Position numbers and translations under genes: made by a program. Shown here piece after piece: positions 1-49,870 of a stretch of 64,000 bases of DNA. The DNA is from an uncultured bacterium (GTDB taxonomy: Bacteria > Planctomycetota > GCA-002687715). The DNA is taken from the NCBI GenBank assembly GCA_902826835.1, contig CADEGH010000003.1, positions 266,083 through 330,082 of the forward strand, in the 5' to 3' direction. Below the pieces are notes generated by a model. The model was given only the letters and a program-made list of their open reading frames with translations, had not been told where the DNA came from and did no database searches. Numbering within the stretch: position 1 is the first letter of the stretch; every line of letters begins with the position of its first letter.

Positions 1-594
1 TGTGTAGGTCGCGTGCCAGTTGAACACGGTGCTGATGATGAACGCCCACACGAAGAGCTGCGGCCCGTTGGTGCCGAGGCTCGGGGCTACGCGCTCGAGG
101 AGAGCGCCGAGGCCGAACACGAAGGCTCCGAACAAGACCGGCACGACCAAGTCGTTCTTGTCGAGCCAGCACAGCTCTTTGAACCGCGCGAGGTCGGGAA
201 TCTCTTTCCAGTGCGTCTTCCAGCCTCCGCGAGTCAAGAACCAGCCGCAGTGACTCATCCAAAAGCCGCGCAGGCGCGGCGAGTGCTCGTCCAAGGGTTC
301 GTCGGAGTACTTGTGGTGGCGACGGTGGTGGGCCGCCCACCAAAGCGGGCCGCGCTGCACCGCGGTTTCTCCCCACACCGCCATCACGAATTGGAAGGCG
401 CGCGACGTCTTGAAGGTGCGATGCGAGAAGTACCGGTGATAAAAGCCGGTGATCGCGAACATGCGACCGACGTAAAACACGAAGGCGAGCGCGAGCGCAA
501 AGTGGCTGTAGCCGACCCAGATCGGGGCGATACACGCGGCATGGATGAGCAGGTACGGCGAGCTGCGCAGCCAGTCGATCTTGGGATCGGGCAG
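1..594 (-). CDS. Membrane acyl-CoA/acyl-lipid (delta-9-type) fatty-acid desaturase. The 3' end is cut by the window edge and the start codon is uncertain.
   Basis: Own reverse translation; it is absent from the ORF track because it runs off the window. Sequence reads ..PDPKIDWLRSSPYLLIHAACIAPIWVGY..GFYHRYFSHRTFK..LWWAAHHRRHHKYSDEPLDEHSP.., showing the HRxxSH and HHRxHH histidine boxes. No in-frame ATG/GTG/TTG lies between 594 and 816. A CTG at 592-594 is preceded by GGGAGG (complement of about 606-611). Confidence 0.75.
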   Translation of the reverse strand, partial: MPDPKIDWLRSSPYLLIHAACIAPIWVGYSHFALALAFVFYVGRMFAITGFYHRYFSHRTFKTSRAFQFVMAVWGETAVQRGPLWWAAHHRRHHKYSDEPLDEHSPRLRGFWMSHCGWFLTRGGWKTHWKEIPDLARFKELCWLDKNDLVVPVLFGAFVFGLGALLERVAPSLGTNGPQLFVWAFIISTVFNWHATYT

Positions 595-2324: not shown

Positions 2325-3224
2325 ATGGAGACACTTGCCATGGAAAGCACCTCAGGTCTTGCGATCGGTGACGTGGCGGCGGCGACCGGTCTGACCGTCG
2401 AGACGATCCGCATCTGGGAGCGGCGCTACGGTCGACCCAAGGGCATCCGCCTACCCTCGGGCCATCGTCGGTACTCTGACGCCGACGTGCGGTGGCTGCG
2501 TCGAGTCGCCGAGGCCCTCGCCAACGGCTTTAGGCCGGCCAAAATCGTCCCCCTCTCCGATCAGGACTTGGACCAGGTCCTGATCAAGAAGTCCCCGGCC
2601 CCGCCGATCTCGCCGGAGGTCGCCACCCTTCTCGAGTCGGTGCGCCGCTTCGACCGGGACCGCGTCCTGGAACTCCTCGACCAGGCCCACCAACGCCATG
2701 GCCCGATCGGCCTGCTCCAAACCGTGGTGTCCGGCATGATCGAGAGCATCGGCCGCTCCTGGGCAGATGGGGCACTCTCGATCCGTCACGAGCACTTTGC
2801 GTCGGAGGTTCTCGAAGACTTCCTCCGCCGCATCCGCGGCCAGGTCTCCCTCCCGAAGGCCGCCCCCACGATCATCATCTGCACCCTGCCGGCTGAGACC
2901 CACGGTCTCGGCCTGCAAATGGTGGGCGTGGCCGTGGCTGCCCAAGGAGTTCGCCCGCTGATCCTCGGCACCGGCACCCCGGCCTCGGAGATCGTCCACG
3001 CGGTGCGCGAGACCCAGGCCAAGGCCGTCGCCATCAGTGTGTCGCTCGCGACCGGTGGCGTGAGCTCGGATCGTCTCCTCGCCGACCTGCGGCGGGAGCT
3101 GCCCGCGGAGATCGCGCTGCTCGTGGGCGGTCGCGGTGCGCGCGGGGTGCGCCGGGGGCCTCGCGGCATCACCTACACCGCGGACCTCAACGAACTCGCC
3201 GCCTGGATCAAGGCGAATCTGTGA
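2325..3224 (+). CDS. carH: CarH/LitR-family MerR regulator with a B12-binding photoreceptor domain
   Basis: N-terminal MerR HTH (IGDVAAATGLTVETIRIWERRYG..SGHRRYSDADV). Wx9EH motif present (WADGALSIRHEH). Cobalamin-binding signature E-x-H-x-x-G ... SxL ... GG present (ETHGLG / SVSL / VGGRG). Confidence 0.82.
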   Translation: METLAMESTSGLAIGDVAAATGLTVETIRIWERRYGRPKGIRLPSGHRRYSDADVRWLRRVAEALANGFRPAKIVPLSDQDLDQVLIKKSPAPPISPEVATLLESVRRFDRDRVLELLDQAHQRHGPIGLLQTVVSGMIESIGRSWADGALSIRHEHFASEVLEDFLRRIRGQVSLPKAAPTIIICTLPAETHGLGLQMVGVAVAAQGVRPLILGTGTPASEIVHAVRETQAKAVAISVSLATGGVSSDRLLADLRRELPAEIALLVGGRGARGVRRGPRGITYTADLNELAAWIKANL

Positions 3225-4701
3225 ACAGGCCGGCGCCGGAGTCGCCGTAGCGCGCGATGTAATTCTTGACGGAGACTTTGCGCGCGGTGTTCGTCGAGCT
3301 CATGTAGCGAATCGAGCCGAAGATCGGCCGCTTCGGTGCCCAAGGTCGATCAAAACGACCTAGGGTCCAGAAGATCCCCGAATAGGAATTGGGATTGCGG
3401 CCATCGACGGCGTATTTGTTGTTCAAGTGAATGAGATGATGCAAGGCGTCGCGGGGATGGGCGCTCCACTCCAGGATTTTCTTGCCCCAGAGCATCCGCA
3501 GATAATTGTGCAGACGACCCTCGCGCACGAGTTGGCGCTGCGCGGCATTCCACAAAGGGTCGTGAGTGCGCCCGCTTTCAAGGTCGTCCAACGCGTAGAG
3601 ATGAGGCCGCGGATCGACACTGTGTTCGTCCAGGGTCGCCTGCGACCACGGGGGTAGCGATTCGTAGCGATCGTAATCCTTGGGCCGATGATGGGAAAAC
3701 ACGTAGCCGAGTTCCCGCCAGGTCAGAACCTGATCCAAGAAGCCCTCGGCCGACGCCGAGAGTCCCCACCATCCTTCCCGTTGCCCGATTCCCTTGGTGG
3801 TGAGCCGGTCCAAACTCCAGCCTTCTAGCTTGAACACCGCGTCCATGATCGTGTGCGGCCCGATGTGGCCGAAGTGCAGATAAGGAGAGAGACCCGAGGC
3901 GACCTCCTCCTCGGGTTGATTGCGTTCCTCCGCATACCGGGGCAACCGGGCGGTGAATTCGCGCAGCGACTTGCGGGCTTCGCCAGCACCGCCGACAAAG
4001 GCCGCCCGCCCCACGGAGTGATCGATCCGCAGCGCGGACACGCCGCCTGAACTCAGGAACTCTGTCGGATCTGCGAGAGGGGCGAAGGCTCCTTTCAGGC
4101 AGCTCGGCAGGGAAGCTAAGCGCGGGAGTTCCACACCTCGGAAGGGGTCGGTTTTCGGCCGCTCTCCCCACGCTGATGCCAGTTGTTTTTGCACGAAGCG
4201 GCGGAACGCGTAGGCCGTGGGAAACGGGCCGGGGGTGATCTGGAGCGGAAGAACACCATTGGCATCGACGGTGACGAACTTGACCTTCAGTTGCTCGGCC
4301 GCTGCCGCCACCATCCGAGGAAGCATGAAGCAGGGGAAGTGGTCGCCCACCACCAAGCAGGCGTCTTTCGCGAGAGCCGCGAGCAAGCCGCGCCCGTCGT
4401 CGAGCTCGCGCTCGATCCAGGGCACGTAAGTGGCCGGGGCGGAGGCGAAGTCGGCCTGATTGGCGGCCATACCCTCGATCACGAAGCGGTGCATGCGATC
4501 ACTCGCCCACTCGTAACCGAGCCGCAGCCCTTCGAAGACCAGGAGCGGTCGCTGAAGCCGCCGGGCCTCTTCCACCGCGTACTCGAGCGCGAAGTTGGAG
4601 GCCCGTCTACGGAAGGCGGTCATCCAATAGAGAACGTACTTCCCATCCTCCCGAAGCGGACGGTCGTTGCGCACGAAGAGTCTAGATTGCGGAACCGCCA
4701 T
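3208..4701 (-). CDS. phr: Class II CPD deoxyribodipyrimidine photolyase
   Basis: 497 aa. KYVLYWMTAFRRRASNFALEYA near the N-terminus and NPNSYSGIFWTLGRFDRPW near the C-terminus are class II photolyase hallmarks. It is the last gene of the minus-strand operon. Confidence 0.88.
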   Translation of the reverse strand: MAVPQSRLFVRNDRPLREDGKYVLYWMTAFRRRASNFALEYAVEEARRLQRPLLVFEGLRLGYEWASDRMHRFVIEGMAANQADFASAPATYVPWIERELDDGRGLLAALAKDACLVVGDHFPCFMLPRMVAAAAEQLKVKFVTVDANGVLPLQITPGPFPTAYAFRRFVQKQLASAWGERPKTDPFRGVELPRLASLPSCLKGAFAPLADPTEFLSSGGVSALRIDHSVGRAAFVGGAGEARKSLREFTARLPRYAEERNQPEEEVASGLSPYLHFGHIGPHTIMDAVFKLEGWSLDRLTTKGIGQREGWWGLSASAEGFLDQVLTWRELGYVFSHHRPKDYDRYESLPPWSQATLDEHSVDPRPHLYALDDLESGRTHDPLWNAAQRQLVREGRLHNYLRMLWGKKILEWSAHPRDALHHLIHLNNKYAVDGRNPNSYSGIFWTLGRFDRPWAPKRPIFGSIRYMSSTNTARKVSVKNYIARYGDSGAGLFTDSP

Positions 4702-4707
4702 GAAGAA

Positions 4708-5754
4708 TCACCCCGGCTTTTGAAAGAGGTGATGGACCACCAACCACTGCCGTCCGCGATCGAAGCCGAAGAGCTCGGCGCAGGCGAGGAAGAAGATGCG
4801 CCACCGATGGAACCAGCGGTTCGCCTCGACCTTGGTCATCGACCGCAGGAAAATCGCCTTCACGCGGTCGCGATTGCGGTCGAGATTGCGCAGCCACGCT
4901 TCCGCGGTCTTCTGGTAGTGGGTTCCGTCCCACTCCCACGACTGAACGGGTCGCAAGGGGTCAGAGACCCGCAGGAGCAGGTCGCGCGCGGGCATGATGC
5001 CGCCGGAAAAAAAGTGCCGCGCCATCCAGTCGGTGCCGTCTTCGTTCTCGAAGGCGTAGGTCCAGTCGCGATGACAAAAGACATGGGCGAACAAATGGCC
5101 GCCCGGCCGAAGCCAGCCGGCGAGGCGCGCAAACAACTCCGCGTGATTCCGAACGTGCTCGAACATCTCGACCGACACGATGCGATCGAACCGGTCTTCC
5201 AGTTGGAGCTGATTGATGTCGGCGGTGATGACCCGCAGGTTCGTGTGGCCACGGCGCCGCGCCTCGGCTTCGATGAATTCCCGCTGCGGACGCGAATTGG
5301 AAACCACGGTGAGGCGCGAGTTCGGATAATGAGCCGCCATCCACAGGGAGAGCGAGCCCCACCCACATCCGAGTTCCAAGACGTCCTGACCGTCTTCGAG
5401 CCGGGCTCGCTCGCAGGTCGCCGCCAAGGCGGCTTCTTCCGCTTCGCCCAGAGTCTCCGAGCCGCGGGGAAACCACGCACTCGAGTACTTCCGATGCGGG
5501 CCCAGCACCGCCCTAAAAAACTCGGGCGGAACCTCGTAGTGCTGTTCGTTGGCTTTGTCGGTGAGAACCGCCAGCGGCCCTCGGCGGAACATCGCCTGAA
5601 GTCGTTCCTCATGGGCACGGCCTTCGGCCTCCGTCTTCGGCAGGCTCTGCTGGCGCTCGCGGCACAAGCGACGAATTCCCGCCCGCAGGGCAAAATCGGG
5701 AACCCAGCCCCGTTCCGCCCACGCCATCGCGCCCCGTTCGACCTCGACCGTCAT
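4708..5754 (-). CDS. Cyclopropane-fatty-acyl-phospholipid synthase family SAM-dependent methyltransferase
   Basis: 348 aa. EQHYEVPPEFF plus SAM motif VLELGCGWGSLSLWMA. Its start overlaps the stop of the upstream gene by 4 bp. Confidence 0.82.
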   Translation of the reverse strand: MTVEVERGAMAWAERGWVPDFALRAGIRRLCRERQQSLPKTEAEGRAHEERLQAMFRRGPLAVLTDKANEQHYEVPPEFFRAVLGPHRKYSSAWFPRGSETLGEAEEAALAATCERARLEDGQDVLELGCGWGSLSLWMAAHYPNSRLTVVSNSRPQREFIEAEARRRGHTNLRVITADINQLQLEDRFDRIVSVEMFEHVRNHAELFARLAGWLRPGGHLFAHVFCHRDWTYAFENEDGTDWMARHFFSGGIMPARDLLLRVSDPLRPVQSWEWDGTHYQKTAEAWLRNLDRNRDRVKAIFLRSMTKVEANRWFHRWRIFFLACAELFGFDRGRQWLVVHHLFQKPG

Positions 5755-6539
5755 GACGATTTCTCCTTCCTGGGTGGAAGCGGAATGAACGCGCTCACGC
5801 GCCGTTGGTAGGCGCGGTAAGGCTCGCCGCGGGACCGCACCATCGCCTCCTCAAGGATGGGAATTCCCGTGACCTTGAAGAGGAACAAAGCCATCAACGC
5901 CGGCCCGAGCAGGAGCAGGTAACCCATGGGCGCCGACCACCCGATGAGGACATAGCTCCACCAGTGGAGCCACTCGAAAAAGTAGTTGGGGTGACGAGAC
6001 CAGCCCCAGAGTCCAACATCGCAAACCGAGCCCGGCGGCGCGCTCTTCACGAAGCTGCGGAGCTGGCGATCCGCCACACTCTCTCCGAGCAACGCAATTG
6101 CGGCGACGGCGGCACCCGCCACATCCGTCCATTGCCATCCGGGGACGGTCGAACGCGCCGCCCAAAACGCCGGCAGCGCGAAGAGCACGGCCCACAGACC
6201 CTGGATCTGATACAGAACGAAGAATCGCGAGTTGGCGGCTTCGCCCCACCCTGCGCGGAAGCCTGCGTAGCGACGGTCCTCCTTCCCCCCGCGGATGCGC
6301 AAGATGAGGTGGACCGCGAGGCGAAGGGCCCAGAGGCCAACGATCCCCGCGATCAAGTGTCGGCGATGGGTCGGAGCCGGCCCAAAGAGCGCCCACGTCG
6401 CGCCGAGAACGCCGACGCCGACCGTCCAGGCCACATCCACGTCGCTGGCGTTGCGGGTTCCTCGCTGCCTGACCCACAGGAGCAGCATCATCACCAGCAT
6501 GACCGCGAGGCCGAAGAGGATCAGCATACCCTCGGTCAT
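5751..6539 (-). CDS. DUF1295 membrane protein (steroid 5-alpha-reductase / ICMT-like fold)
   Basis: WGWSRHPNYFFEWLHWWSY motif and multiple TM segments. Trimmed to the ATG at 6539, which forms an ATGA overlap with the upstream stop at 6536. Confidence 0.75.
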   Translation of the reverse strand: MTEGMLILFGLAVMLVMMLLLWVRQRGTRNASDVDVAWTVGVGVLGATWALFGPAPTHRRHLIAGIVGLWALRLAVHLILRIRGGKEDRRYAGFRAGWGEAANSRFFVLYQIQGLWAVLFALPAFWAARSTVPGWQWTDVAGAAVAAIALLGESVADRQLRSFVKSAPPGSVCDVGLWGWSRHPNYFFEWLHWWSYVLIGWSAPMGYLLLLGPALMALFLFKVTGIPILEEAMVRSRGEPYRAYQRRVSAFIPLPPRKEKSS

Positions 6540-7819
6540 GACCCGCCGCCGTAACCCGGAGCCGGGCAGGTGGCGGCAGTGAAGCCACCCCGTGCAAACA
6601 GGGCTTGGACGAGACCGAGCTGGCCCTCCGCGAAGCCGCCTTCGCAGTACGCGAAGTAGAACTCCCACTGGCGGAGCATCCGCCGCGGGAAGCCCTGCGC
6701 CAACGCCCGATCCGTGGCGGCCCGCAAATTGGTGCGCCACTCCGCGAGGGTGCGTGCGTAGTGCGATCCAAACTCGGCCAAGTCGGCGAGCACGAAGTCG
6801 GTCGCCCGACGGGCCGCCGCCAGCATGGAACCCACCGAGGGGATACTCGAGCCCGGGAAAATCGAACTCTGAATGAAGTCCACGTTTTTCAGGGCTCGGG
6901 CGTGGCGGCGTTCGGTGAGCGTGATTCCCTGCACCATGAACACTCCCCCGGGTTTGAGGAGGCGCGACACGGTCCGGAAGTACTCGGGCAGGTTCTCATG
7001 TCCCACCGCTTCAATCATCTCGACGCTCACCGCCTTGTCGAACTGTCCCTCGAGATCGCGATAGTCGGAAAGCAGAACCGTGATTCGATCCGAGAGCCCC
7101 GCGTCCCGCACACGCTCGGTTGCCAAATAATGCTGCTCTTTCGAGATCGTCGTGGTGGTCACTCGGCAGCCGTACCGCGCCGCGGCGTGGAGTGCAAAGC
7201 TCCCCCAGCCGGTGCCGATCTCAAGGAGATGATCGTCGGCGGTGAGCGCCAGTTTTTGGCAGATGCGATCCAGCTTGGCAGTCGACGCTTCTTCGAGCGT
7301 CGTCTGCGCCGAAGGGAAGATCGCGCTTGAATAGGTGAGCGAGCGATCCAGGAACAGCCGGAACCAGTCGTTGCCAAGATCATAATGGGCCGCGATGTTC
7401 TTGCGACTACCGATCTTGGTGTTGCGAGCGAACCAACGATGGCTCAAATAGCGCACCCGATTCGCGAAGGCCGCAAAGCCCCGCTCCAGACGGTCGGTGA
7501 TCTCCTCGTTCCGCACCATGAGACGCACGAGATTCGGTAGCGGATGGCAATCCCAAGTCCCGTCCGCGTAGGTCTCGGCCGCGCCGATGGTGCCGCCCCG
7601 GAGCACCCGCTGGTAGAAATCCGGGTGATGGACGGTGAGTGTCGCGTGCAACGGGCCGCCGCTTCCGAAGTGTTCTTCGGAATGGCCATCGCGCAAAGTG
7701 ACTCGCCCGCCCTGGAGACGAGCGAATGCTCGCCGCAGGGCCTCTTTGCCGAGTCGTTGTCCCCAGAGCAGACGCGATGTCCGAGGCGCCCCGATGGAAG
7801 TGTGAGTGGGACTCGTCAT
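6536..7819 (-). CDS. cfa: Cyclopropane-fatty-acyl-phospholipid synthase
   Basis: HYDLGNDWFRLFLD, LLEIGTGWGSFALHAA, and C-terminal YFAYCEGGF. Trimmed to the ATG at 7819 (ATGA overlap with DUF1365). Confidence 0.85.
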   Translation of the reverse strand: MTSPTHTSIGAPRTSRLLWGQRLGKEALRRAFARLQGGRVTLRDGHSEEHFGSGGPLHATLTVHHPDFYQRVLRGGTIGAAETYADGTWDCHPLPNLVRLMVRNEEITDRLERGFAAFANRVRYLSHRWFARNTKIGSRKNIAAHYDLGNDWFRLFLDRSLTYSSAIFPSAQTTLEEASTAKLDRICQKLALTADDHLLEIGTGWGSFALHAAARYGCRVTTTTISKEQHYLATERVRDAGLSDRITVLLSDYRDLEGQFDKAVSVEMIEAVGHENLPEYFRTVSRLLKPGGVFMVQGITLTERRHARALKNVDFIQSSIFPGSSIPSVGSMLAAARRATDFVLADLAEFGSHYARTLAEWRTNLRAATDRALAQGFPRRMLRQWEFYFAYCEGGFAEGQLGLVQALFARGGFTAATCPAPGYGGGS

Positions 7820-8622
7820 GCCGGAGTTCTCGATGAAGGAGAATAGGTCTTCGGGTGATCGTGGAACGGTGCCCCCTTGAGCCAAAGAAGGAGGGCATGC
7901 CAGTAGATCGCGAGTACGATCCTGAACGTCTGAAGTGGATGGCCGAGACACGCTCGCGCCGCGGTGCCGGCGCTGAATCGCTGTTTGTCGAGATGAAGGC
8001 GGGCTTCGAACAGGCGTTCGCCCTCCCGCCAGTTTTCCATGTGCACGTCGGTGGTCCGCTGCCCCCGTTCGAAAGCCCAGGCATAGCTCAGGTCCATCGG
8101 CAGGAACGGGGACACGTGAAACCGCTTTGGAAAGCGATGCGCGGCGGACAGGGTGCGCGGCGAAAAGTCGGACGCAGTGCCCTCGCTGCGCAGATGGTCA
8201 TTCCGTTGATCCAGAATCTCGAGATGCCGCTCCCCCCACGGAGTGTTGTGGATCTCCGCGATGACGGCGGCGAGTCGACCCTCGCTATCGAAGCAGTGAA
8301 AGAAGCTCACGGGATTCATGACGTAGCCCAGGGTGCGGGGCTGCGTCAGAAGTTCGATGCGCCCTTGCGGAGTGAATCCGAGTTCCGCGGCTACGGTCTC
8401 CCGCACGACCTGGGCCCATGGCCGAGAGGGGTCGCCGAAGTGATCCCGGCGCCGAATCCAAAACGGAGCTGGCCTTCGAGCCGACCAAAACCACCTTCTT
8501 CGCAAGCCCGACTCCAAGTGATCGAGGTCGAGGCCCACGAGAAAGAGGCGGTAGTGAAATGCGTGTGGGACGGGCGCAAAGCGGCGGTGCCACACTCGGC
8601 CTTTCCAGATCCGGTGACTCAT
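7816..8622 (-). CDS. DUF1365 family protein
   Basis: 268 aa. G.VWHRRFAPVPHAFHYRLFLVGLDLD is the characteristic DUF1365 N-terminus. 4-bp overlaps on both sides. Confidence 0.8.
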   Translation of the reverse strand: MSHRIWKGRVWHRRFAPVPHAFHYRLFLVGLDLDHLESGLRRRWFWSARRPAPFWIRRRDHFGDPSRPWAQVVRETVAAELGFTPQGRIELLTQPRTLGYVMNPVSFFHCFDSEGRLAAVIAEIHNTPWGERHLEILDQRNDHLRSEGTASDFSPRTLSAAHRFPKRFHVSPFLPMDLSYAWAFERGQRTTDVHMENWREGERLFEARLHLDKQRFSAGTAARACLGHPLQTFRIVLAIYWHALLLWLKGAPFHDHPKTYSPSSRTPA

Positions 8623-9875
8623 CCGAGTCGATCTCCCCCGAGCGCGGCCGCCACGCGGACGGCGCTTTGCACACCGTCTTCGTGGAACCCGTAACCGAAG
8701 TAGGCTCCGGCGAAGGAGGTCCGGTTTTGGTTGATGAGCTTTCCGTGCTCACGCTGCGCCGCGAGCGCGCGGGCGCGATACGCGGGGTGTCGGTAGTGGA
8801 AGCGACGCACCACCTTCGACTCCGCCAGACGCTGGCCGGCATTCAGAGAAACGAGCCAGGGAGTGGATTGCGGAAGCCCTTGCAGGAGATTCATCGAGTA
8901 CGTGCAGATCGGGATCGCCTCCGAATCGCGAGGCAAGAAGGAATTCCACGCGGAGACCGCGCGCTTCGCACGAGGCAGGATGCCATCATCCTGATGCAAG
9001 GTCACGTCGTTCCCGGTGTAGGGGAAGGCCTGGAGGATACGACGCTCATCGTCGGAAGGATGATCGAGAAGACGCAGGGCATCGTCGGCATGGCACGCCA
9101 GAATCACATGGTCCGCCCGAACCGGAGGCTGACCGGCAAATTCCAGGACAACATGATCTGGAAGCCGCCGTACCCTCGTGACCTCGTGCTGCGTGCGGAT
9201 CTCGCTCGCGAGGGTGCGCCGGAGTGCCTGCACGTACTGGTCAGAACCACCCTGCACCGTCCGCCACTGCGGCCGGTCGTTGCCCGCCTGCAGCATGCGG
9301 TGGTTGTTCAAGAACCCGAGCAGAAAGTGCGCGGGGAACTCCATCAGAGTGTGCGCTGGACAAGACCAAAGCGCGGAACCGAGCGGCACCAGGTAGTCGC
9401 GCACGAAGCGCTCGCTGAAGCGATGCTCGCCGACCAGATCTCCGACCGACCGGTCGTCGCGCCCCGTGGCCAAGTCCTGCCCCCCGACCTCGTGAAAGCG
9501 GACGATCTCCTTCAAGAACCTCAGGTAGGACCAGTCCAAGAGGCGCCGCTTCTGCGCGAAGAGGGCGCGGACATCGGTGCCGCCATACTCGAGGCCCGTC
9601 GCCTCGCTCCTCACCCCGAAGCTCATGGTGGTGGGTCTCGAGGCCACCCCCAACTGCTTCAAGAGCGCGGTGAATCCCGGGTAGTTGTGCTCATTGAACA
9701 CGATGAAACCGGTGTCCACGCGCGCGGCGGATCCATCCCGGTTCGCGACTCCCACCGTATGCACATGGCCGCCCACCCGGCTGTCCGCCTCAAAAACCGT
9801 GACCCGATGCCCACCCGCCAGCAGGTAGGCCGCCACGAGGCCCGAGACTCCGGATCCGACAACCGCGACGTCCAT
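8619..9875 (-). CDS. NAD(P)/FAD-dependent oxidoreductase (amine-oxidase / desaturase-like); first gene of the operon
   Basis: MDVAVVGSGVSGLVAAYLLAGGHRVTVFEA dinucleotide-binding N-terminus. This is the conserved partner of DUF1365 and CFA synthase genes. Confidence 0.82.
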   Translation of the reverse strand: MDVAVVGSGVSGLVAAYLLAGGHRVTVFEADSRVGGHVHTVGVANRDGSAARVDTGFIVFNEHNYPGFTALLKQLGVASRPTTMSFGVRSEATGLEYGGTDVRALFAQKRRLLDWSYLRFLKEIVRFHEVGGQDLATGRDDRSVGDLVGEHRFSERFVRDYLVPLGSALWSCPAHTLMEFPAHFLLGFLNNHRMLQAGNDRPQWRTVQGGSDQYVQALRRTLASEIRTQHEVTRVRRLPDHVVLEFAGQPPVRADHVILACHADDALRLLDHPSDDERRILQAFPYTGNDVTLHQDDGILPRAKRAVSAWNSFLPRDSEAIPICTYSMNLLQGLPQSTPWLVSLNAGQRLAESKVVRRFHYRHPAYRARALAAQREHGKLINQNRTSFAGAYFGYGFHEDGVQSAVRVAAALGGDRLG

Positions 9876-9880
9876 GTCAA

Positions 9881-9924
9881 AAGATACGAAGCCCGCCCGT
9901 CAATGTCCAGAATATTTTTTGGAC
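9881..9924 (-). promoter_or_regulatory. Putative promoter plus palindromic operator of the FAD-oxidoreductase...photolyase operon
   Basis: Minus-strand reading: GTCCA-aaaaatattc-TGGACA, then a 17-nt spacer, then TATCTT, then 5 nt (ttgac), then ATG at 9875. The -35-like TGGACA lies inside the palindrome GTCCA-N10-TGGAC (9905-9924). There is no Shine-Dalgarno sequence, so the mRNA may be leaderless. Confidence 0.5.
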
Positions 9925-11364: not shown

Positions 11365-13407
11365 TCAGGTCTGCTCGGCTTCGCTCTCTCCGGGGTAGGA
11401 GGAACCTACCGTCCGTGCACCGGAAGTCCCGGTAGCGGTCGAGCCCGACTCCTGGCCGGTGTTCGCAATCACCGACTTCCAGAAAATTCCGCTCGGCGGG
11501 ACGCGCTTGCGTCCGAGGACCACCAATTCGAGCGGAACCAACACGTACTCGGTGAGCCACTGGCTGACCATGAAATCGGTATACCCGGCCATCGCATTGT
11601 CGACCGCCAGGTTCCCCAGCCGACGGGCAAAAGTCACGTCGATGGAGCTCGGCTCCATACTGCGGATGAGATGGCGAGGTTCGTTGGAGAACACTCTGAA
11701 GCTGTTCCAATACGCATCGTGGGTGCCCTCTTTCCTGATCAAGAATTGGAGTCCAAAAGAAACCAATTTCAGCGCCGCAGAACGCAAGTCGTCAGGTGTC
11801 TGGCCAATCACCCGACGGCCGTTAGCGTCGAAATGCTGCACGGCCATAGTCTCAGCGGCGCTGAGGCGGGCAACCGTTACGTAGTTATTCCAATCCCGCG
11901 GGATGGCGGTCTCCGCCATCATCACCAGGCCGAAGGGCCGTCGCTGGGACTTTTTTCTTTCTTTGAGCTTTCCGATCAGTCCCTTCGCGATCTGAACCAA
12001 ATTGAAATCAACTTCCGGGATCAGGGCTGCATCGCAATCCCCGGAAGCGAGGGCCGCATGGGACACGACAAATCCCGAGTCCGACCCGAAGAGCTGCATC
12101 ACACACAACCTGGGGTTCGAAAAGCTCTCCTGGTGCAATTGCCTCGAGAATCGGGTTGCCATCTCCACGGCTGAGGCAAATCCAAAGGATTGCCAGACCC
12201 AGAGAATATCGTTGTCCATCGTCTTCGGAATGCCGACCACGGAGAGGCAGGAGCTCGTGTTCTCGGACGCACGGGTTGCCAAGGCGTGAGCCGCTCTCAT
12301 GCTCCCGTCGCCACCGATGACATAGAGAATGTCGATGTCTTGAAGAAAGCCGATGATCCGATCGAGGATCCTGATGCGATCGACGCCGCGGCTGTTCAAC
12401 AGTTCATCGAAACGCGCCGTGGCCACGCAAGATCCGGCAGTCCGAGCCAGCTCTTTGACCTTGGCATCCGTCCAGTCGACGATTTCGAAATTGTCCGCTC
12501 CATCGTGAAGTCCCTGAAAGCCCCCGTGGTACACCCGGATGAGCGCATCCTGGCCCGAATAGAGCCGATGGCGTTCGATCAAACTGGCGAGCACGGCATT
12601 GATGCCCGGCGCAATACCTCCGGAGACCACGATCGCGACGCGAACCCCCGGCCTTCCGCGGTGCGGAAGCGACAGTCGTCGGCGAGGCCGGGCTTCGAGA
12701 AAAGACAACTTGGAGGGAATGGACTGGCGGGCATCCACGGAAATCCGGGCTTCGGAATCGCCGTAGCTCCCAATGACAGACTCGTGGATTTGATTCTCGT
12801 ACCATGGGGGCACGCCCACCCGAGCGGAAGGCCAACTCGCCGGACATCCGAGGGTGACGAGATCGAGGCGGTGGCTCGCGATATCACCGCTCGTGGGATC
12901 GAACGCCTTGATCAAATCCTTCTCGTAGCCAAAAGGGTATCCTATCGGGAGCCCGTCGATCTCGACCCAAGGCGGAGGGGCTTTGTGAGAACCCCACAGC
13001 AAGGTCCAGACTTGGCGACCTACACCGCACCAAAATCCGGCGCCTCCCCCCTTGGCCAAGACGCGAGCCGCCGACAATTCCAGTGGCGCCAACGGCAACG
13101 TGAATGAAGGCAGATCCTCCGTCAGTTGAACAATGATGAAGCGTTTTTTTGTCTTGAGAACATGGCGGACCTCCGACTCTTGCGTGGCGCCCACCGTCTC
13201 TCCGAGCACGATCAGGACGGTTTCACAATCATCCAAGGCGCGTTGGACTTGCTCCGGCCATGTTCCAATCTTGCGATTCTCGATGAAAAAGTAGACCTCG
13301 ATGTGATCCTGCCGCCGAAGTTCTCGGACAAGCTGGGCGACGAGAGCTTCGTCGCCGAACCGATAAGAAACGAAAACTCGATGCAGCGGCTCAGTGGATT
13401 TCGACAT
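11365..13407 (-). CDS. Fusion protein: N-terminal TIR-like domain, about 150 aa of unknown sequence, and a C-terminal phosphofructokinase-family (PFK-like) domain
   Basis: 680 aa. N-terminus: VFVSYRFGDEALVAQL..IGTWPEQVQRALDDCETVLIVLGE (TIR_2-like pattern). PFK signatures: VVSGGIAPGINA, YVIGGDGS, GIPKTMDNDI, MMAET, and RHLIRSMEPSSID. The MGR motif is replaced by LFG. GC is lower than in neighbouring genes. Confidence 0.7.
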   Translation of the reverse strand: MSKSTEPLHRVFVSYRFGDEALVAQLVRELRRQDHIEVYFFIENRKIGTWPEQVQRALDDCETVLIVLGETVGATQESEVRHVLKTKKRFIIVQLTEDLPSFTLPLAPLELSAARVLAKGGGAGFWCGVGRQVWTLLWGSHKAPPPWVEIDGLPIGYPFGYEKDLIKAFDPTSGDIASHRLDLVTLGCPASWPSARVGVPPWYENQIHESVIGSYGDSEARISVDARQSIPSKLSFLEARPRRRLSLPHRGRPGVRVAIVVSGGIAPGINAVLASLIERHRLYSGQDALIRVYHGGFQGLHDGADNFEIVDWTDAKVKELARTAGSCVATARFDELLNSRGVDRIRILDRIIGFLQDIDILYVIGGDGSMRAAHALATRASENTSSCLSVVGIPKTMDNDILWVWQSFGFASAVEMATRFSRQLHQESFSNPRLCVMQLFGSDSGFVVSHAALASGDCDAALIPEVDFNLVQIAKGLIGKLKERKKSQRRPFGLVMMAETAIPRDWNNYVTVARLSAAETMAVQHFDANGRRVIGQTPDDLRSAALKLVSFGLQFLIRKEGTHDAYWNSFRVFSNEPRHLIRSMEPSSIDVTFARRLGNLAVDNAMAGYTDFMVSQWLTEYVLVPLELVVLGRKRVPPSGIFWKSVIANTGQESGSTATGTSGARTVGSSYPGESEAEQT

Positions 13408-13558: not shown

Positions 13559-14177
13559 GCGACCGCTGCATCCCGCAAGAACCCGGATCCGAGTCTCGAT
13601 TACCGGGACCATCCTCCTGCCAAAATGGTGGGTCATTCCAATGGGCCCGAAAAGAGTGGCCCTGTATTGGCAGTCAGTCGCCCCCGCTACCCTCCACAGG
13701 AAAGACCGGTGCGCTGGGCGCGGATTGTCACCTCTCCTGCTCGGGAAGCGAGAGAAAAACCACGGCTGGGACCCGAGGACTGAGTTCTACACCACGCTGC
13801 TCCGCTCTCCGCGCTGCCCCAGTTCAATCGTGATTCCGGGTCATGATGCCGGACGGAATTCGACCTTACCGCATTGCCATCGATCTCATGAGAAAAGGGA
13901 TGGAATTCACGCCCGCCATAGGCCAGGCCTCGACGAGGGCCGACATGCCATCGGGTTGGATTCGACTGCGGCCACCGCCCGGCATGTCCTACCGGGGGCG
14001 GGTGCTTGCGCCACCCCTCATCTGGGTGCTGCCGAGGGTGCTCCGAATCCTCGGAACTCGGCCATCAGGGAGAGCACCCACTGGTGCTCACGCGGGTTGA
14101 GGAGGCGAACAAGTCCGACGCGGCGATGGCCATCACTGCACGGCTACTCGGAGAGAGGCGAACTTGAACTCGCACGA

Positions 14178-14198
14178 TGTCCAGATAATTTAAAGAAC
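14178..14198 (+). promoter_or_regulatory. Third, degenerate copy of the TGTCCA-N10-xGxAC motif, immediately upstream of the SRPBCC gene
   Basis: tgtccagataatttaaagaac is 15/21 identical to the site at 9904-9924. It contains a GATAAT -10-like hexamer 11 nt before the ATG at 14201. No Shine-Dalgarno sequence. Confidence 0.35.
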
Positions 14199-14200
14199 AA

Positions 14201-14746
14201 ATGACCATCCAGGCTTCATCAGTGCCCACACGGGTTCCACCGCTCTCCAGGCAGCTGATACCCCCTATCACCTTCGCGGCGGACCCCGACTTCAGGGGGG
14301 CCTGGCGGCTCGACACCGCGATTTTTCTTCCGCTCACTCCGGAGGCGCTCTTTCCGTTTTTTGCCGACGCCCGGAACTTGGAGGAGATCACCCCGCCGTG
14401 GCTGCGGTTCGCGCTTGTCGATGCGCCGGCCGGACCCCTCGCGAGCGGAGCGCTCATCAACTACCGGTTGCGGATACGAGGGGTACCGATTCGTTGGCAA
14501 ACCCGGATCGATGATTGGGACCCCCCGCGTCGATTCACCGACGAACAGAAGAAGGGCCCCTACCGCCGCTGGCACCACGAGCACCGGTTCTTTTCGATGG
14601 AAGGTGGAACCCTCATGACCGATCGAGTTTCCTTCGCGGCGATCGGCGGCCCCTTGGTCCGCCGTTTTCTCATCGAGCCCGATCTGCGGCGGATCTTCAC
14701 CTACCGACACGAGCGCATCCGGGCTCGCTTCGGAGGCGCGGAATGA
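14201..14746 (+). CDS. SRPBCC-superfamily (cyclase/dehydrase-like) ligand-binding protein
   Basis: 181 aa. ..FPFFADARNLEEITPPWLRF..YRLRIRGVPIRWQTRIDDWDPPRRFTDEQKKGPYRRWHHEHRF.. is the typical SRPBCC pattern. Confidence 0.75.
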   Translation: MTIQASSVPTRVPPLSRQLIPPITFAADPDFRGAWRLDTAIFLPLTPEALFPFFADARNLEEITPPWLRFALVDAPAGPLASGALINYRLRIRGVPIRWQTRIDDWDPPRRFTDEQKKGPYRRWHHEHRFFSMEGGTLMTDRVSFAAIGGPLVRRFLIEPDLRRIFTYRHERIRARFGGAE

Positions 14747-15288
14747 GCGCGCTCGGAAGTCTCCCCGCGGCGGCGGCAACCCTCCCGGTTTTGGGTCGCA
14801 ATCTCCGCGACGGTTCGCTCCGAGACCAGCTCGACGAGCGCCCAACGCTCCTTCTCTTCGTGCGGCACTTCGGGTGAATCTTCTGCCGCGAGCAGGTGCG
14901 CGAGGTTCGCGCCCGCAGTGAGCGAGATCCCCAGTTCCCCCCCACCTTGATCGTGCATCCTTCGGACCAAGCTTCGGGCGAGGCTTTCTTCGCGGCCGAA
15001 TGGCCGGCCGCACGTTCGATCAGCGATCCCGATCTCGAAATCTTCGAGGCCTTCGCGTTCCGACGCGGTTCGATCGGCGCGCTGCTCGGCCCGAAGGTGC
15101 TCGCCGCTTCCATCCGAGCGATGCTGCGCGGCCACGGCATCGGAAGACCGCGCGGAGACATCCTGAGGGAAGCCGGGGCACTGATCCTCGATCGCTCCCG
15201 TGTCCTTTGGGAGCACCGACCGGCGCACATCGGGGTGCATCTCGATCTCGACGAAGTGGCCGGGATCGCGGCTCGCAGCGCAGGCTGA
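14743..15288 (+). CDS. AhpC/TSA_2 (PRXL2/SelU-like) thioredoxin-fold redoxin with an in-frame TGA at 14875-14877; candidate selenoprotein with a UxxC motif
   Basis: ORF-track ORFs 14515..14877 and 14896..15288 are in the same frame. The joined reading is ..RPTLLLFVRHFG-[TGA]-IFCREQVREVRA... The ATG at 14743 overlaps the SRPBCC stop (ATGA). A hairpin lies 21 nt downstream of the TGA. Confidence 0.6.
14895..14915 (+). promoter_or_regulatory. Candidate bacterial SECIS-like stem-loop
   Basis: gcgcga-GGU-tcgcgc (14898-14912). It can be extended by G95/G96 pairing with C913/C914, leaving U97 bulged. The apical loop contains GU and lies 27-29 nt from the UGA. Confidence 0.4.
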
Positions 15289-15326: not shown

Positions 15327-18300
15327 ATGTTCCGGATCCGATCTCGATTCTTCGGTCTTTGGTTGCTCCTCGCCTCCACGCTGCTCGCCCAGGCGGAGCC
15401 GCCGCCGGTCAGGGCGCTGTTCTTGGGCGACCGCGGCCACCATCGACCTGAGCAGAGGTGGCGGGAGAGTCGCGAGTCGTTCTTGGCAGAGGGAGTCGAA
15501 CTCAACTACACCGAGGACCTCGCCGCCCTGACAACGGAGCGGCTCGAGCCCTTCGATGCACTCCTCGTGTACGCCAACCTCGAGTCGCTCCCGGCGGCCG
15601 CGATGGTGGCCGTCCTCGACTTCGTGCGCAGCGGAAAGGGCTTTGTCCCGCTCCACTGCGCATCCGCTTGCTGCCCTTCGGAACCGGCGTGGACGGCCTT
15701 GGTCGGAGGTCAATTCGATCGCCACGGCTTCGGCCTCGTGCGCGCCACCGTGGCCGATCCGAGCCACGCCTGCCTTCGTGGATTCATGCCCTTCGCGTCT
15801 CCGGACGAGACCTACGTCCATCGTGCGCTGACCGAGGACCGACACGTTCTCCAGTGGCGCACCGAAGGAGAGGAGCGCGAGCCGTGGACATGGGTACGCG
15901 CCGATGGGAAGGGACGGGTCTTTTACACCGCCTCGGGCCACGACGAACGCACCTGGTCACATCCGGGCTTCATCGAATTGGTCACTCGCGGGATACGGTG
16001 GGCCGCCGGAGATCGGTTCTCGAAAGTGCCGGCGCCTTACCCGCAGCTCCAATACTTCGAGGCGGAGATCCCGACTTACGGACACCAAGGGGAGGAGCGC
16101 GCGGCCCGCGGCAAGCCGAAAGGGCTTGTCCAGGGCGCACTCTCCGTGGAGGACTCGATGTCCCTCGCGGCCGTTCCCCCCGGGTTCGAACTTCGGTGCT
16201 TCGCGGCGGAGCCGAACATCACCAACCCCACCGCGATGGCCTTCGACGCCCGCGGACGGCTTTGGATCACGGAGACTCTGGACTACCCGAACGAACTCAA
16301 GCCGCAGGGGGAAGGCAGTGACCCCATCAAGATCTGCACCGACCAGGACGGTGACGGAACCGCGGATGGGTTCTCGATCTTCGCCACCGGATTGAGCATC
16401 CCCTCGAGCCTCGTGCTCGTGAAGGGGGGAGTGATCGTGACTGCCCAGCCGGACACCCTCCTTCTCTTAGACCGGGACGGCGATGATCAGGCCGATGAAC
16501 GCCGCGTCCTCTTCACCGGGTGGGGCAAGGGTGACACCCATGCCGGACCCAGCAACTTGCGCTGGGGTCAAGACGGGTGGATTTACGGCACCGTGGGTTA
16601 CTCCGGCTTTCGCGGCCGGGTCGGAACGAAGGAGCATCGATTCGGGTCCGGCGTGTTCCGTTTCCTGCCGGACGGATCGGAACTCGAATTCCTCGGATCG
16701 AGCTCCAACAACACCTGGGGGCTCGGGCTCTCGGAGTCCGGAGAGATCTTCTATTCCACCGCCAACAACGACGTCTTCAATCACGTCGCGATCAAGAACC
16801 GTCTCTTCGAGCGTGTGGATGGTTGGCACGCCCAGGGCACGGCCTTCATTGCCGATTACCGGGAGATGCACCCCGCGACCGAAGATGTGCGGCAGGTGGA
16901 CTGGCACGGGCGTTACACCGCCGCAGCCGGGGCCTCGATTTACACCGCGAGGGCATTCCCACCGAACTACTGGAATCGCATCGCCTTCGTGTGCGAACCG
17001 ACGGGACACCTCATCGGCCAAACGGTCATTGCTCCCGAAGGCAGCGGATTCGTGGCGCGCGACGGTTTCAATCTGTTCGAAAGCCGCGACGCATGGACGT
17101 CGCCGGTGGCCGCCGAAATCGGCCCCGACGGAGCGGTGTGGTTCATCGACTGGTACAGCCCGGTCATCCAACACAACCCCACGCCCCACGGTTTCGAAAC
17201 CGGTCCCGGAGCCGCTTATGTCACGGCGCTGCGCGACCAGGAGCGAGCAAGGATCTATCGCATCGTCCGACGCGGGACGTCCGACCGCGGCGCTCCTGCT
17301 CTCCGCACTCCGGATGATTGGTTGACCACGCTCGAAGACCAGAACCTCCTGTGGAGACAGCACGCCCAACGCTTGATCCTGGAGAATCCAGTTCCGGAAA
17401 TGCTCGGGCGCGTGGCGACGAGACTGACCCTGACCGCGCGGAGTCCGAGCACGGAGGCGTCGGTTCTCGTGAGCTTGATCGCGACGCTCGGCTGTCTCGC
17501 CGAAGGCCGCACCGACGAGATTGCCCCCGTGCTTCTTCCTCTTCTCATGGATGCACGCCCTGAGGTAAGGGTCGCGGCCCTGACCAGGCTGCTCCCAACG
17601 ACCAGCACCCTGCACGCGATTCTCGCGGCCAAGCTCACGCAGGACTCCGATCTTTGGGTGCGCCGCCACGCCTGGCAAGCGCTGAGCGAAGTCCCCGCCG
17701 AGGAGAGACTCGGTGAGCTCGCATGGAAGGCGCTCGGCGACGAGTCCAACGCTCGCGACCGATGGCTCCCGCTCGCCATCACGGCCGCGGCGGTGCAGCA
17801 CGCGGAGGGATTTCTGGTCGGAGCCCTGAGCGAGCCTCGCCCCACCTCGCCGGCGGTGCCGGACTCGCCCAATCTCCTCCCAAATCCGTCCTTTTCCGCG
17901 AGCGTCGATTCACCGGTGCCGGCAGCTCCACCGTGGAGAGTCCGAACCTACGGCGGGCAAGCCACCCACCGTGTGTCCGAGAGCGGGCGCAGCGGCGATA
18001 CATGCTTGGAGATCAGCTCCGAAACCGGTTCCGACACCAGCTACTTCGTGGATGTGAAGGTCGAACCCAAGACCACCTACCGCTTGAGCGGCTGGATCCG
18101 CACGCAAGGCCTGAAGACGAGGGGAGGCGCGCTCGGCGCCCTGCTCAATGTCCATGGGCGAAGCCCGGCCGAGGGCGCGACGACGGTCGCAAACCCGAGC
18201 GAGGAGTGGAATGAAGTCGAACTGACCTTCGCGACCCACCCCGGCGAAACTGAAGTCAGCATCAACTGCCTGTTCGGCGGGTGGGGATTTGCGACCGGCA

Positions 18301-19547
18301 CCGCCTGGTTCGACGACGTGAAGCTCACGAAGATCGGATCCGGCTCGGACGAAGCGGCCCGCGCGGTCGCGCGGGAGCAGGCACTGCGTCTCGCAACCAG
18401 GGCGCTGGCGTCCGCCGGGGTGAGCGCCGCCTGGGCCAATCTCCTGCCACGGCTGTCCGCGGCCGACGAGAGGTTGCGTCACTCGATTCTTGGCGGGCTC
18501 GCGAGCGGCTGGCCGAAAGGCAAGTCGTCGCAATTTTCGGAGGCCGAACGAAATCGGCTGCGGAATTTCGAGTCCACCCTCGACACCTCCGCGCTCTCGG
18601 AGTGGGTAGAAGTCACCCGGGCATGGAGCGACGAGGCATTGATTTCTTCGGCCGTCGCACGCGTTCGCACTGAACTTCAAAGAACACTCTCCGATACCAC
18701 CACTCCGCAGGCAGCGAGACTAAAATCCCTCGGCCGTCTGCTCCGACTGGAAGATTCGGCAGAGAATCGAGCCAAAGTCCGCGCTGAACTTTCGCCCCTT
18801 CTCGAGCCGACGGCGGCGAAGCAGGTCCTCGATCTGCTGGCCAAGTGCCGCGCTGACGAAAATGGACCGGAGCTGGTCGCCCTGTGGCCCGAGCTGACAC
18901 CATCGCTACGACAGCACTTGGCCCCGATATTCCTGAAACGCCCGGCCTGGCAGCAAGCCCTCGCCGAAGCGCTGCTTTCGGGCACTACGACCCGCGCCGA
19001 ACTCGGGACTGAGGTAACCGAGAAGCTGATTTTGTCCCTCCCCGCGGATCTGGCCGATCGCCTCCGGAACGCCGCCACCAACCATGCAGTCGCGAAGGAC
19101 CGGCAGGCCGCGCTCGATCGACTGCTCCCTCTGATCGGAGGACCGGGTGATCCCGCGCGAGGCCGCCAGCTATTCCGCACTCTCTGCTCGTCTTGTCACC
19201 AAAAAGACGGGCTGGGCGCCGCCGTGGCCCCCGCTTTGGATGGGCTTGGATCCAAGGCCCACTCCGACTTGTTGCTTGAAATCGTCGACCCGAACCGCTC
19301 CGTGGAAGCCACCTACCAGCTCTGGTTGGCCTTCACCAAAGAGGGCGAGTCGTTCTCCGGGCGCATGCTCTCGGAGTCGAGGACGACGATCGAACTTCAA
19401 GACTCGGGCGACGTTCGGCACGTGATTCCGCGCGAGGCGATCGACACCCTTCGCGCCACTAACCGTTCCCTCATGCCGGAGGGCTTGATCGATCACTTCA
19501 GCGCCGACGACCTCCGCTCGTTGCTCACCTATCTGACGGGAAAGTGA
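15327..19547 (+). CDS. Secreted multidomain protein: ThuA-like domain, beta-propeller membrane-bound-dehydrogenase-type domain, HEAT repeats, CBM-like module, and C-terminal c-type cytochrome
   Basis: Trimmed to MFRIRSRFFGLWLLLASTLLAQA (signal peptide). ThuA-like segment: ALFLGDRGHH..LLVYAN..FVPLHCAS. Propeller segment: ITNPTAMAFDARGRLWITE. C-terminal heme motif: CSSCHQKDG. Confidence 0.7.
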   Translation: MFRIRSRFFGLWLLLASTLLAQAEPPPVRALFLGDRGHHRPEQRWRESRESFLAEGVELNYTEDLAALTTERLEPFDALLVYANLESLPAAAMVAVLDFVRSGKGFVPLHCASACCPSEPAWTALVGGQFDRHGFGLVRATVADPSHACLRGFMPFASPDETYVHRALTEDRHVLQWRTEGEEREPWTWVRADGKGRVFYTASGHDERTWSHPGFIELVTRGIRWAAGDRFSKVPAPYPQLQYFEAEIPTYGHQGEERAARGKPKGLVQGALSVEDSMSLAAVPPGFELRCFAAEPNITNPTAMAFDARGRLWITETLDYPNELKPQGEGSDPIKICTDQDGDGTADGFSIFATGLSIPSSLVLVKGGVIVTAQPDTLLLLDRDGDDQADERRVLFTGWGKGDTHAGPSNLRWGQDGWIYGTVGYSGFRGRVGTKEHRFGSGVFRFLPDGSELEFLGSSSNNTWGLGLSESGEIFYSTANNDVFNHVAIKNRLFERVDGWHAQGTAFIADYREMHPATEDVRQVDWHGRYTAAAGASIYTARAFPPNYWNRIAFVCEPTGHLIGQTVIAPEGSGFVARDGFNLFESRDAWTSPVAAEIGPDGAVWFIDWYSPVIQHNPTPHGFETGPGAAYVTALRDQERARIYRIVRRGTSDRGAPALRTPDDWLTTLEDQNLLWRQHAQRLILENPVPEMLGRVATRLTLTARSPSTEASVLVSLIATLGCLAEGRTDEIAPVLLPLLMDARPEVRVAALTRLLPTTSTLHAILAAKLTQDSDLWVRRHAWQALSEVPAEERLGELAWKALGDESNARDRWLPLAITAAAVQHAEGFLVGALSEPRPTSPAVPDSPNLLPNPSFSASVDSPVPAAPPWRVRTYGGQATHRVSESGRSGDTCLEISSETGSDTSYFVDVKVEPKTTYRLSGWIRTQGLKTRGGALGALLNVHGRSPAEGATTVANPSEEWNEVELTFATHPGETEVSINCLFGGWGFATGTAWFDDVKLTKIGSGSDEAARAVAREQALRLATRALASAGVSAAWANLLPRLSAADERLRHSILGGLASGWPKGKSSQFSEAERNRLRNFESTLDTSALSEWVEVTRAWSDEALISSAVARVRTELQRTLSDTTTPQAARLKSLGRLLRLEDSAENRAKVRAELSPLLEPTAAKQVLDLLAKCRADENGPELVALWPELTPSLRQHLAPIFLKRPAWQQALAEALLSGTTTRAELGTEVTEKLILSLPADLADRLRNAATNHAVAKDRQAALDRLLPLIGGPGDPARGRQLFRTLCSSCHQKDGLGAAVAPALDGLGSKAHSDLLLEIVDPNRSVEATYQLWLAFTKEGESFSGRMLSESRTTIELQDSGDVRHVIPREAIDTLRATNRSLMPEGLIDHFSADDLRSLLTYLTGK

Positions 19548-49185: not shown

Positions 49186-49870
49186 GAGGCGCTCCCTTCC
49201 CGGAGGCATCCGTGGATGGGCCCCCGACGTGGCAGTCGAGTACGGACCGCGTCCCCAACTCTGCCCGCACTGGTTGGCCGGGAAGAAGCGGCCCCACTCC
49301 TGAAGGTGTACCCGTGAATATGAGATCGCCGGCCTCCAGGGTGAAGCGCGAGGAAATGAAGCGGACCAGCGCGACCACGCCGTGGATCATGTCCCGGGTG
49401 TTGCCCTTCTGGCGCCAGGTGCCGTCGACGCGGAGCCCAAGGCTCAGATTGCCGAGGTCCCCGACGTCCGAGACCGGCGACCAGTTGCCGAGGGGAGCTG
49501 ATCCGTCGAATCCCTTGGCCACGGCCCACGGATGTCCCTTTACCTTGGCCGCGGTTTGGAGGTCCCGCGCCGTGAGATCCAAGCCAACGGCGACACCATC
49601 GATGGCCAAGGCTGCCTCCGCGGCACTCAAGCGGGCGCCGCCAAGTCCCACGCGCAGCACCATTTCCACCTCGTGGTGAATCTCGCGGCTGAATGACGGA
49701 AGCGCGAGTTCCGCCGGCTCGGAGAGCAGAGCGGTCGAGGGCTTGAAGAAGAGGATAGGTTCTTCCGGAGGTTCCGCCCCCATCTCTCGTGCGTGGTCCG
49801 CGTAGTTCCGTCCGACCGCCACGATCTTGCCCACCGGCAAGACGCGGCCACCCACCACTGTGGTTGCCAT
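49178..49870 (-). CDS. Fumarylacetoacetate hydrolase family protein
   Basis: Trimmed to MATTVVGG... KIVAVGRNYADHAREMG, HHEVEMV, and GDLIFTGTPSGVG. Confidence 0.85.
   Translation of the reverse strand: MATTVVGGRVLPVGKIVAVGRNYADHAREMGAEPPEEPILFFKPSTALLSEPAELALPSFSREIHHEVEMVLRVGLGGARLSAAEAALAIDGVAVGLDLTARDLQTAAKVKGHPWAVAKGFDGSAPLGNWSPVSDVGDLGNLSLGLRVDGTWRQKGNTRDMIHGVVALVRFISSRFTLEAGDLIFTGTPSGVGPLLPGQPVRAELGTRSVLDCHVGGPSTDASGKGAPHG

Follow-up and report, generated by a model that had tools for sequence, protein, structure and literature searches.

Does the in-frame TGA at positions 14875-14877 of a 64,000-nucleotide stretch of DNA from an uncultured Planctomycetota bacterium (contig CADEGH010000003.1; the whole stretch analysed is called the window below) end a gene, or is it read as selenocysteine (Sec)? 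The original prediction for this locus, drawn from the letters of the DNA, was that positions 14743-15288 encode a redoxin of the SelU/PRXL2 kind with Sec as the leading residue of a UxxC motif. The core of that reading, namely a Sec codon at UxxC position 1 of an AhpC/TSA_2-type redoxin, is supported by an invariant Cys column, purifying selection, a reproduced TGA and the presence of such genes in at least 120 species. For the window gene, the argument draws chiefly on where the codon lies, on the selection seen to either side of it and on the recurrence of Sec at this site across the family. On this comparative sequence evidence, the region is very probably a genuine selenoprotein gene, whose UGA would be decoded as Sec in a SelL-related/PRXL2 (AhpC-TSA_2) redoxin.

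Reading frame and position of the in-frame UGA

The elements of the gene are as follows.

14743..15288, plus strand: gene for a SelL-related redox protein of 181 aa with proposed U45, stop codon TGA 15286-15288; assigned by NF040769, alignment, dN/dS and an AlphaFold (AF2) model
14875..14877, plus strand: in-frame UGA, the proposed Sec codon (U45) at UxxC position 1, aligned to an invariant Cys
14884..14886, plus strand: TGC for Cys48, the second (resolving) residue of UxxC, an invariant Cys in the alignment
14732..14736, plus strand: Shine-Dalgarno sequence GGAGG, 6 nt 5' of ATG 14743, read from the sequence

As first described, open reading frames (ORFs) 14515..14877 and 14896..15288 share one frame and are separated by the TGA at 14875-14877 and six sense codons (14878-14895). 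Reading through from ATG 14743 gives the predicted product, MSALG...LLLFVRHFG-U-IFCREQVREVR..., which runs for 181 aa to TGA 15286-15288, and the frame between these points is broken once only, at 14875-14877. The ATG (14743-14745) does overlap the stop codon of an upstream SRPBCC gene (TGA 14744-14746, forming ATGA), and a GGAGG that is absent from the first account precedes it. The location of this GGAGG 6 nt before the ATG argues for a translation start at 14743 and, hence, for ribosomes that reach the UGA.

With Cys substituted for U, the read-through protein matched the NCBIfam model NF040769, 'SelL-related redox protein', at 129.5 bits (E = 1e-37, cut-off 120), with residues 11-173 placed on profile positions 3-170 of 173. 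The Pfam family AhpC-TSA_2 (PF13911) was matched by the C-terminal part only, at 24.3 bits (E = 4e-5), below the gathering cut-off of 27. Of the 113 homologues retrieved by search, almost all have 175-210 aa and a precomputed PF13911 assignment. Because these homologues carry PF13911 and the family profile matches PRXL2B at E = 2e-11, the window protein is, as judged from sequence, a superfamily relative of PF13911 and, by score, no formal Pfam member.

Alignment with 30 full-length homologues, a check that the original prediction had called for, placed the TGA column on the invariant first Cys of FLRHFG-C-IFC-RE, a placement beyond chance. Invariant positions in this alignment are F39, R41, H42, G44, C45, F47 and C48. 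The second position of the motif is TGC (Cys48) and not Sec, so the protein lacks the UxxU that defines selenoprotein L proper. When the alignment profile was compared with solved structures, the best match was human prostamide/prostaglandin F synthase (PGFS) PRXL2B (PDB 9us9; E = 2e-11) over its full length. This match lines up the CxxC motifs, LRRFGCVVCR of PRXL2B with VRHFGUIFCR of the window, and sets window Cys48 against Cys47 of the human PGFS CxxC.

In the AF2 model (predicted local distance difference test score 92.4, predicted template modelling score 0.89), residue 45 caps the N-terminal end of helix 46-61 (alpha-1) and comes after strand 35-39; in the model, this position is the canonical active site of a thioredoxin fold. 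PRXL2B was also the top Foldseek match (template modelling scores 0.71/0.79), followed by peroxiredoxins of the PrxQ/BCP type. The proposed PRXL2/SelU assignment thus stands at the superfamily level, where PRXL2B is the nearest solved structure, whereas, among curated bacterial families, the protein belongs to the SelL-related NF040769.

The TGA itself could be an error. Logan contigs for four wastewater and biofilter metagenome runs, each from a different study, gave no other letter at 14875-14877, at a depth of about 10 in two of the runs, which answers at the level of contigs the re-check of read support that had been suggested. The top match of the homologue search, a 130-aa 'hypothetical protein' on a contig (L001) from a separate metagenome sample of the Joint Genome Institute (JGI), also has TGA at this codon. 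Nothing more than the general prior for sequence derived from metagenome-assembled genomes (MAGs) speaks for a true TGC or TGT misread in sequencing or assembly, and we assign that explanation a negligible probability.

Contig L001 matches the window in its SRPBCC gene, 44-aa ORF, 130-aa ORF and downstream neighbour, and it retains the TGA. Across the gene it is about 92% identical to the window, with 43 substitutions, and the Nei-Gojobori dN/dS for the whole gene is 0.185. Upstream of the TGA, over 44 codons, the ratio is 0.24 (binomial p = 0.0035), and downstream of it 0.145 (p = 6e-6), both significantly below neutral; two out-of-frame controls gave 2.2 and 3.1. Such constraint in both parts argues that the gene is not a decaying pseudogene.

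These values bear directly on the possibility of a recent loss, in which the catalytic TGY became TGA in the common ancestor of the window and L001, in a genome lacking Sec machinery. A single base change (TGC or TGT to TGA) would suffice for such a loss, the closest relatives outside the pair are Cys forms, and the window protein departs from the family consensus at several motifs, such as GDILREAG against GDIWRMPG. Yet both halves stayed below neutral through the 43 substitutions since the L001 split, neither frameshifts nor added stops have appeared, the strong Shine-Dalgarno sequence and the overlapping start are kept, and elsewhere at least 120 intact genes carry TGA at this codon. We therefore consider a pseudogene improbable, and Sec decoding of an intact gene remains the preferred reading.

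Reassignment of TGA throughout the genome was rejected, as TGA ends 22 of 30 long coding-like ORFs in the window, where no other ordinary stop codon is as common. A screen of the window for coding frames interrupted by TGA returned two more sites, at 49694 (plus strand) and 51660 (minus strand), neither with a redox motif. The frames flanking both are coding-like, with a third-position G+C content of 0.74-0.77 on both sides, and at 51660 two neighbouring genes probably share one frame.

Selenocysteine forms and SECIS hairpins across the family

DNA of named genomes was scanned with the pattern R-H-F-G-TGA-[ILVM]-F-[C/U]-[RK]-[DE], which carries about 41 bits and for which about 0.4 chance matches were estimated. 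The scan returned at least 120 loci from about ten phyla, with Chloroflexota, Acidobacteriota, Myxococcota, Planctomycetota, Verrucomicrobiales, Gemmatimonadota, Spirochaetales and Actinomycetota among the groups represented, besides others. Every listed match is an in-frame family gene whose ORF is intact on both sides, with 40-60 aa on the N-terminal side of U and about 132-142 aa on the C-terminal side, and all nine representatives tested matched NF040769. Among the at least 120 matches listed all were UxxC and none was UxxU, though the pattern allowed it.

A subgroup of long Sec forms, with about 470 aa after U, consists of fusions to an SDR oxidoreductase domain; one of them, L009, scored 141.5 bits against NF040769 and matched SDR-family models in its extension. 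These loci (L009, L012-L015, L018, L021, L035, L036, L047, L051, L065, L069 and L071, and further L083, L090, L093, L100, L104, L110 and L117) belong mostly to Myxococcota, 'Deltaproteobacteria' and Spirochaetales MAGs.

On a FastTree phylogeny of 192 family members, the state of the site changed between U and C at least 18 times, and at least 6 of these changes are forced by well-supported branches. The window and L001 fall within a clade of about 65 members, mostly Cys forms (15 U). Two family genes lie within a few kb of each other at L021, L082, L126 and L201, and at L021 and L082 a Sec form stands beside a Cys form; paralogue pairs of the latter type could be used to study the exchange of Cys and Sec. 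In three metagenome runs (X4, X7 and X10), short contigs of other organisms map to the motif (window 14855-14897) and continue as a SECIS (Sec insertion sequence) of the majority class (GCGCAGTTGCGCG, GGTGCAGGTGCACC), which suggests that several Sec-form members co-occur in wastewater and biofilter communities.

The majority class is defined by a common hairpin. In 75 of 122 sequences a hairpin 25 nt past the UGA, with an AGUU or AGGU loop, has a 7-bp helix that pairs +22..28 with +33..39. Covariation was examined in an ungapped alignment of 119 sequences from which the window and L001 were left out. Helix cells were paired in 80.1% of cases, as compared to 62.2% after shuffling and 24-52% in slid registers; compensatory changes were found at all seven helix pairs, and the covariation score of 0.46 (against 0.20) was reached by none of 500 shuffles.

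The helix lies within the coding sequence (loci L002-L121, +22..+39), and the residues that it encodes co-vary as a result, as in V-A-Q-L-R-D, A-V-Q-V-H-R, L-A-Q-L-E-Q and A-A-Q-L-R-R. As far as sequence comparison can tell, RNA structure here clearly places a constraint on the sequence of the protein.

A control set of 116 Cys-form genes, retrieved with the same pattern but with TGY, behaved differently. The mean free energy of the best hairpin was -9.6 kcal/mol for Sec forms and -3.1 for Cys forms (p = 2e-25), and the four published criteria for bacterial SECIS elements (bSECIS) were passed by 74% and 6%, respectively; the contrast in hairpins was kept in all four GC bins. When all 119 Sec-form sequences, a mixed set, were taken together, RNAalifold returned no consensus structure, since other hairpins are used by about a quarter of them.

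The corresponding element of the window is the following.

14892..14916, plus strand: candidate bacterial SECIS, stem 14898-14903/14907-14912, loop GGU 14904-14906, with bulged U14897 and A14894

The hairpin had been proposed as a 6-bp stem extendable past a bulged U. It is present as described, running from G14898-C14912 to A14903-U14907 with the GGU loop at 14904-14906, and it extends past bulged U14897 and A14894 to G14892-C14916. Its energy is -8.1 kcal/mol in the simple and -12.9 in the extended form, and its core is identical in L001. The fold check that had been suggested gave a divided answer: the hairpin passes the four bSECIS criteria taken from PMC13188914 (a 3-nt loop starting with GG, here GGU; a 6-bp upper stem; a spacing of 26 nt; and -8.1), but the fold z-score is -1.07, not strongly beyond chance.

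This score is one of several observations that weigh against Sec decoding at this site. The same criteria are passed by 7.5% of codon positions in the long ORFs of the window and, among 47 GC-rich Cys forms, by 7. With R1, a covariance model for the majority-class hairpin built from other species, the site scores only 17 bits (E ~0.17, rank 3 in 64 kb) and is aligned with the helix out of register. Within the window's own subclade, mean hairpin energies of Sec and Cys forms were -4.8 and -4.1 (p = 0.15), and the bSECIS criteria were passed by 4 of 15 Sec forms as compared to 3 of 49 Cys forms, a weak contrast (p = 0.047). The lineage is isolated as well: the window protein is a long-branch member with L001 as its sole close relative, all others being at most 46% identical, and HIGVHLDL joins GDILREAG among its altered consensus motifs.

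Finally, ARAGORN found no tRNA, including tRNA-Sec, in the 64-kb window, which also has no Rfam family match and, as first noted, contains none of selA, selB, selC and selD; nor was a tRNA-Sec found by ARAGORN in the 241 loci fetched. The out-of-register match to R1 indicates that the window hairpin is no positional homologue of the majority class. Given the place of the window and L001 among mostly Cys forms on the tree, their SECIS probably arose separately. The window hairpin is compatible with Sec decoding and not decisive, being weak on its own.

The hairpins also bear on whether the UGA might be passed without Sec, either by low-level insertion of Trp or Cys through a near-cognate tRNA or Cys-tRNA(Sec), or by termination and restart to give a 44-aa peptide and a GTG-started fragment of 130 aa. 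Gene callers do start a 130-aa ORF at GTG 14896, six sense codons past the TGA, and if that fragment were functional it would yield selection downstream of the TGA as well. The GTG, on the other hand, lacks a good Shine-Dalgarno sequence and is located inside the hairpin, and the 44 codons upstream of the TGA are themselves under purifying selection. In the modelled fold, moreover, the 130-aa piece is without strand beta-1 and the entire active site, in agreement with the original argument that the fold would be cut there. The family-wide, Sec-specific hairpin points to SelB-dependent decoding and not to leaky read-through. We judge this explanation to have only a slim chance, about that of a pseudogene, and retain the reading in which Sec is inserted at U45. 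Under that reading, the two 'hypothetical' pieces of 44 and 130 aa should be merged and annotated as one selenoprotein, and the same mis-call stands in the public JGI record (L001).

Neighbourhood and a possible mechanism

Two neighbouring genes flank the redoxin gene.

14201..14746, plus strand: SRPBCC/Polyketide_cyc2 gene, 181 aa, upstream (Pfam PF10604, 31.1 bits, above cut-off)
15327..19547, plus strand: gene for a ThuA + DUF7133 + CBM_4_9 + cytochrome c protein, 1406 aa, downstream (Pfam)

The ThuA-cytochrome c gene starts 38 nt past the redoxin stop on the same strand and is probably part of the same operon; the order SRPBCC, redoxin, ThuA is the same in L001. Of 240 other loci, 17, from unrelated organisms, have an SRPBCC/Polyketide_cyc2 homologue close to a SelL-like gene. 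The homologue lies downstream at L011 and L190 and upstream in the same orientation at L207, L160 and L236, immediately so in three Cys-form loci. Such recurrence suggests that the redoxin and a lipid-binding-type SRPBCC protein are functionally paired. In a freshwater metatranscriptome run (X17), two 151-nt contigs fall on the SRPBCC gene (14214-14539) at 99-100% identity, with zero coverage of the selenoprotein gene, which weakly suggests that the operon is transcribed in situ.

The following course of events may be envisaged. Ribosomes would start at ATG 14743, as suggested by the GGAGG 6 nt upstream and the overlap with the SRPBCC stop. At the UGA, the hairpin at 14892-14916 would recruit SelB with Sec-tRNA(Sec), and Sec would be inserted, giving a protein with U45-I-F-C48 at the predicted N-terminus of helix alpha-1. 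By analogy with PRXL2B and the peroxiredoxins, Sec45 would act as the nucleophile that attacks an oxidised substrate, be it a peroxide, an endoperoxide or a disulfide; Cys48 would then resolve the intermediate to a selenenylsulfide, which a thioredoxin-type reductant would recycle. The redoxin gene would be co-transcribed and translationally coupled with the lipid-binding-type SRPBCC gene, and this coupling hints at a hydrophobic substrate.

The gene had also been placed in a context of photo-oxidative stress. What stands of that claim is that a CarH regulator and a CMAS/DUF1365/amine-oxidase cluster do occur 5-12 kb upstream; the connection to the redoxin is loose, and plausible only. The CarH-type regulator (MerR with two B12-binding domains) lies beside a minus-strand cluster, genes 2325-9872 by Pfam, that comprises an unknown 496-aa protein, CMAS, DUF1295, CMAS, DUF1365 and an FAD amine-oxidase-like gene. 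This cluster resembles the singlet-oxygen-responsive furan-fatty-acid genes of Rhodobacter.

Palindromes of the form GTCCA-N10-TGGAC occur at two promoters, at 9905-9924 and 2273-2292, and the count of GTCMA-N10-TGGAC in the window, 10 as compared to 7.2 expected, is not above chance. Before the SRPBCC start (14177-14198) there is only the half-site-like TGTCCAGATAATTTAAAGAACA. The minus strand at 11365-13407 encodes a 680-aa protein with an N-terminal TIR_2 and a phosphofructokinase (PFK) domain, an unusual pairing with a metabolic kinase fold.

Taken together, these elements allow a speculative proposal, which we hold to be unlikely as it stands. The SRPBCC protein, the Sec redoxin and the secreted ThuA-propeller-cytochrome c protein might form a light-controlled (CarH-type) module next to the furan-fatty-acid-like cluster. 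Such a module would reduce lipid endoperoxides and hydroperoxides derived from singlet oxygen, as a bacterial counterpart of endoperoxide reduction by PRXL2B. Separately, and offered just as tentatively, NF040769 may be a widespread selenoprotein family unlisted in current inventories, with at least 120 species, at least 18 Cys/Sec switches and a SECIS inside the ORF.

Comparison with known systems

The nearest known proteins are the Cys forms of NF040769, annotated as 'SelL-related redox protein' or 'peroxiredoxin-like family protein'. They have the same length, the FLRHFG-x-xFC-RE motif and a conserved C-terminal half, and the window protein differs from them in having a predicted Sec in place of the first Cys. 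SelL, reportedly described by Shchedrina et al. in 2007 from eukaryotes and marine bacteria, is said to carry a UxxU motif that forms a diselenide. The window protein resembles it in having a peroxiredoxin (Prx)-like thioredoxin fold with Sec in a redox motif of the xxCxxC type, and NCBI curators named NF040769 after SelL; SelL proper is UxxU, however, whereas the window has UxxC (TGA...TGC).

Within the PRXL2 family, fish SelU reportedly has Sec at the same Cys. Human PRXL2B (PDB 9us9, 9usa) is the nearest solved structure by both sequence profile and fold, at about 15% identity to the window protein. In contrast to PRXL2B and SelU, the gene described here is bacterial and has its candidate SECIS within the ORF.

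Knowledge of bacterial Prx-like UxxC selenoproteins dates from the analyses of the Sargasso Sea and Global Ocean Sampling (GOS) data; the GOS groups include 'Prx-like 2' and 'Prx-like 3', and SelL is mentioned there as a 'Prx-like protein' (PMC2398784). Two related classes are catalogued, a 'Prx-like thiol:disulfide oxidoreductase' (PF00578, UxxC/UxxU) and an 'AhpC/TSA family protein' (PF13911/cd02970, UxxS) (PMC9312934, PMC13188914). Neither of these two prokaryotic selenoprotein inventories, of 2022 and 2026, lists NF040769 by identifier or a UxxC form of PF13911 (PMC9312934, PMC13188914). Like the predicted product of the window gene, the catalogued Prx-like selenoproteins combine a thioredoxin/Prx-like fold with Sec in the first redox position, and the same comparative logic predicted them.

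The window gene is, accordingly, an ordinary new example of an established type of bacterial selenoprotein; if the reading is true, a Planctomycetota bacterium uses selenium in a thiol/selenol redox enzyme. The picture at the level of the family, with its wide spread, repeated Cys/Sec switching, SECIS-driven covariation of residues and SDR fusions, is a modest addition to what is known of these proteins. Sec forms of NF040769 are common across bacterial phyla and may deserve a place in the selenoprotein inventories.

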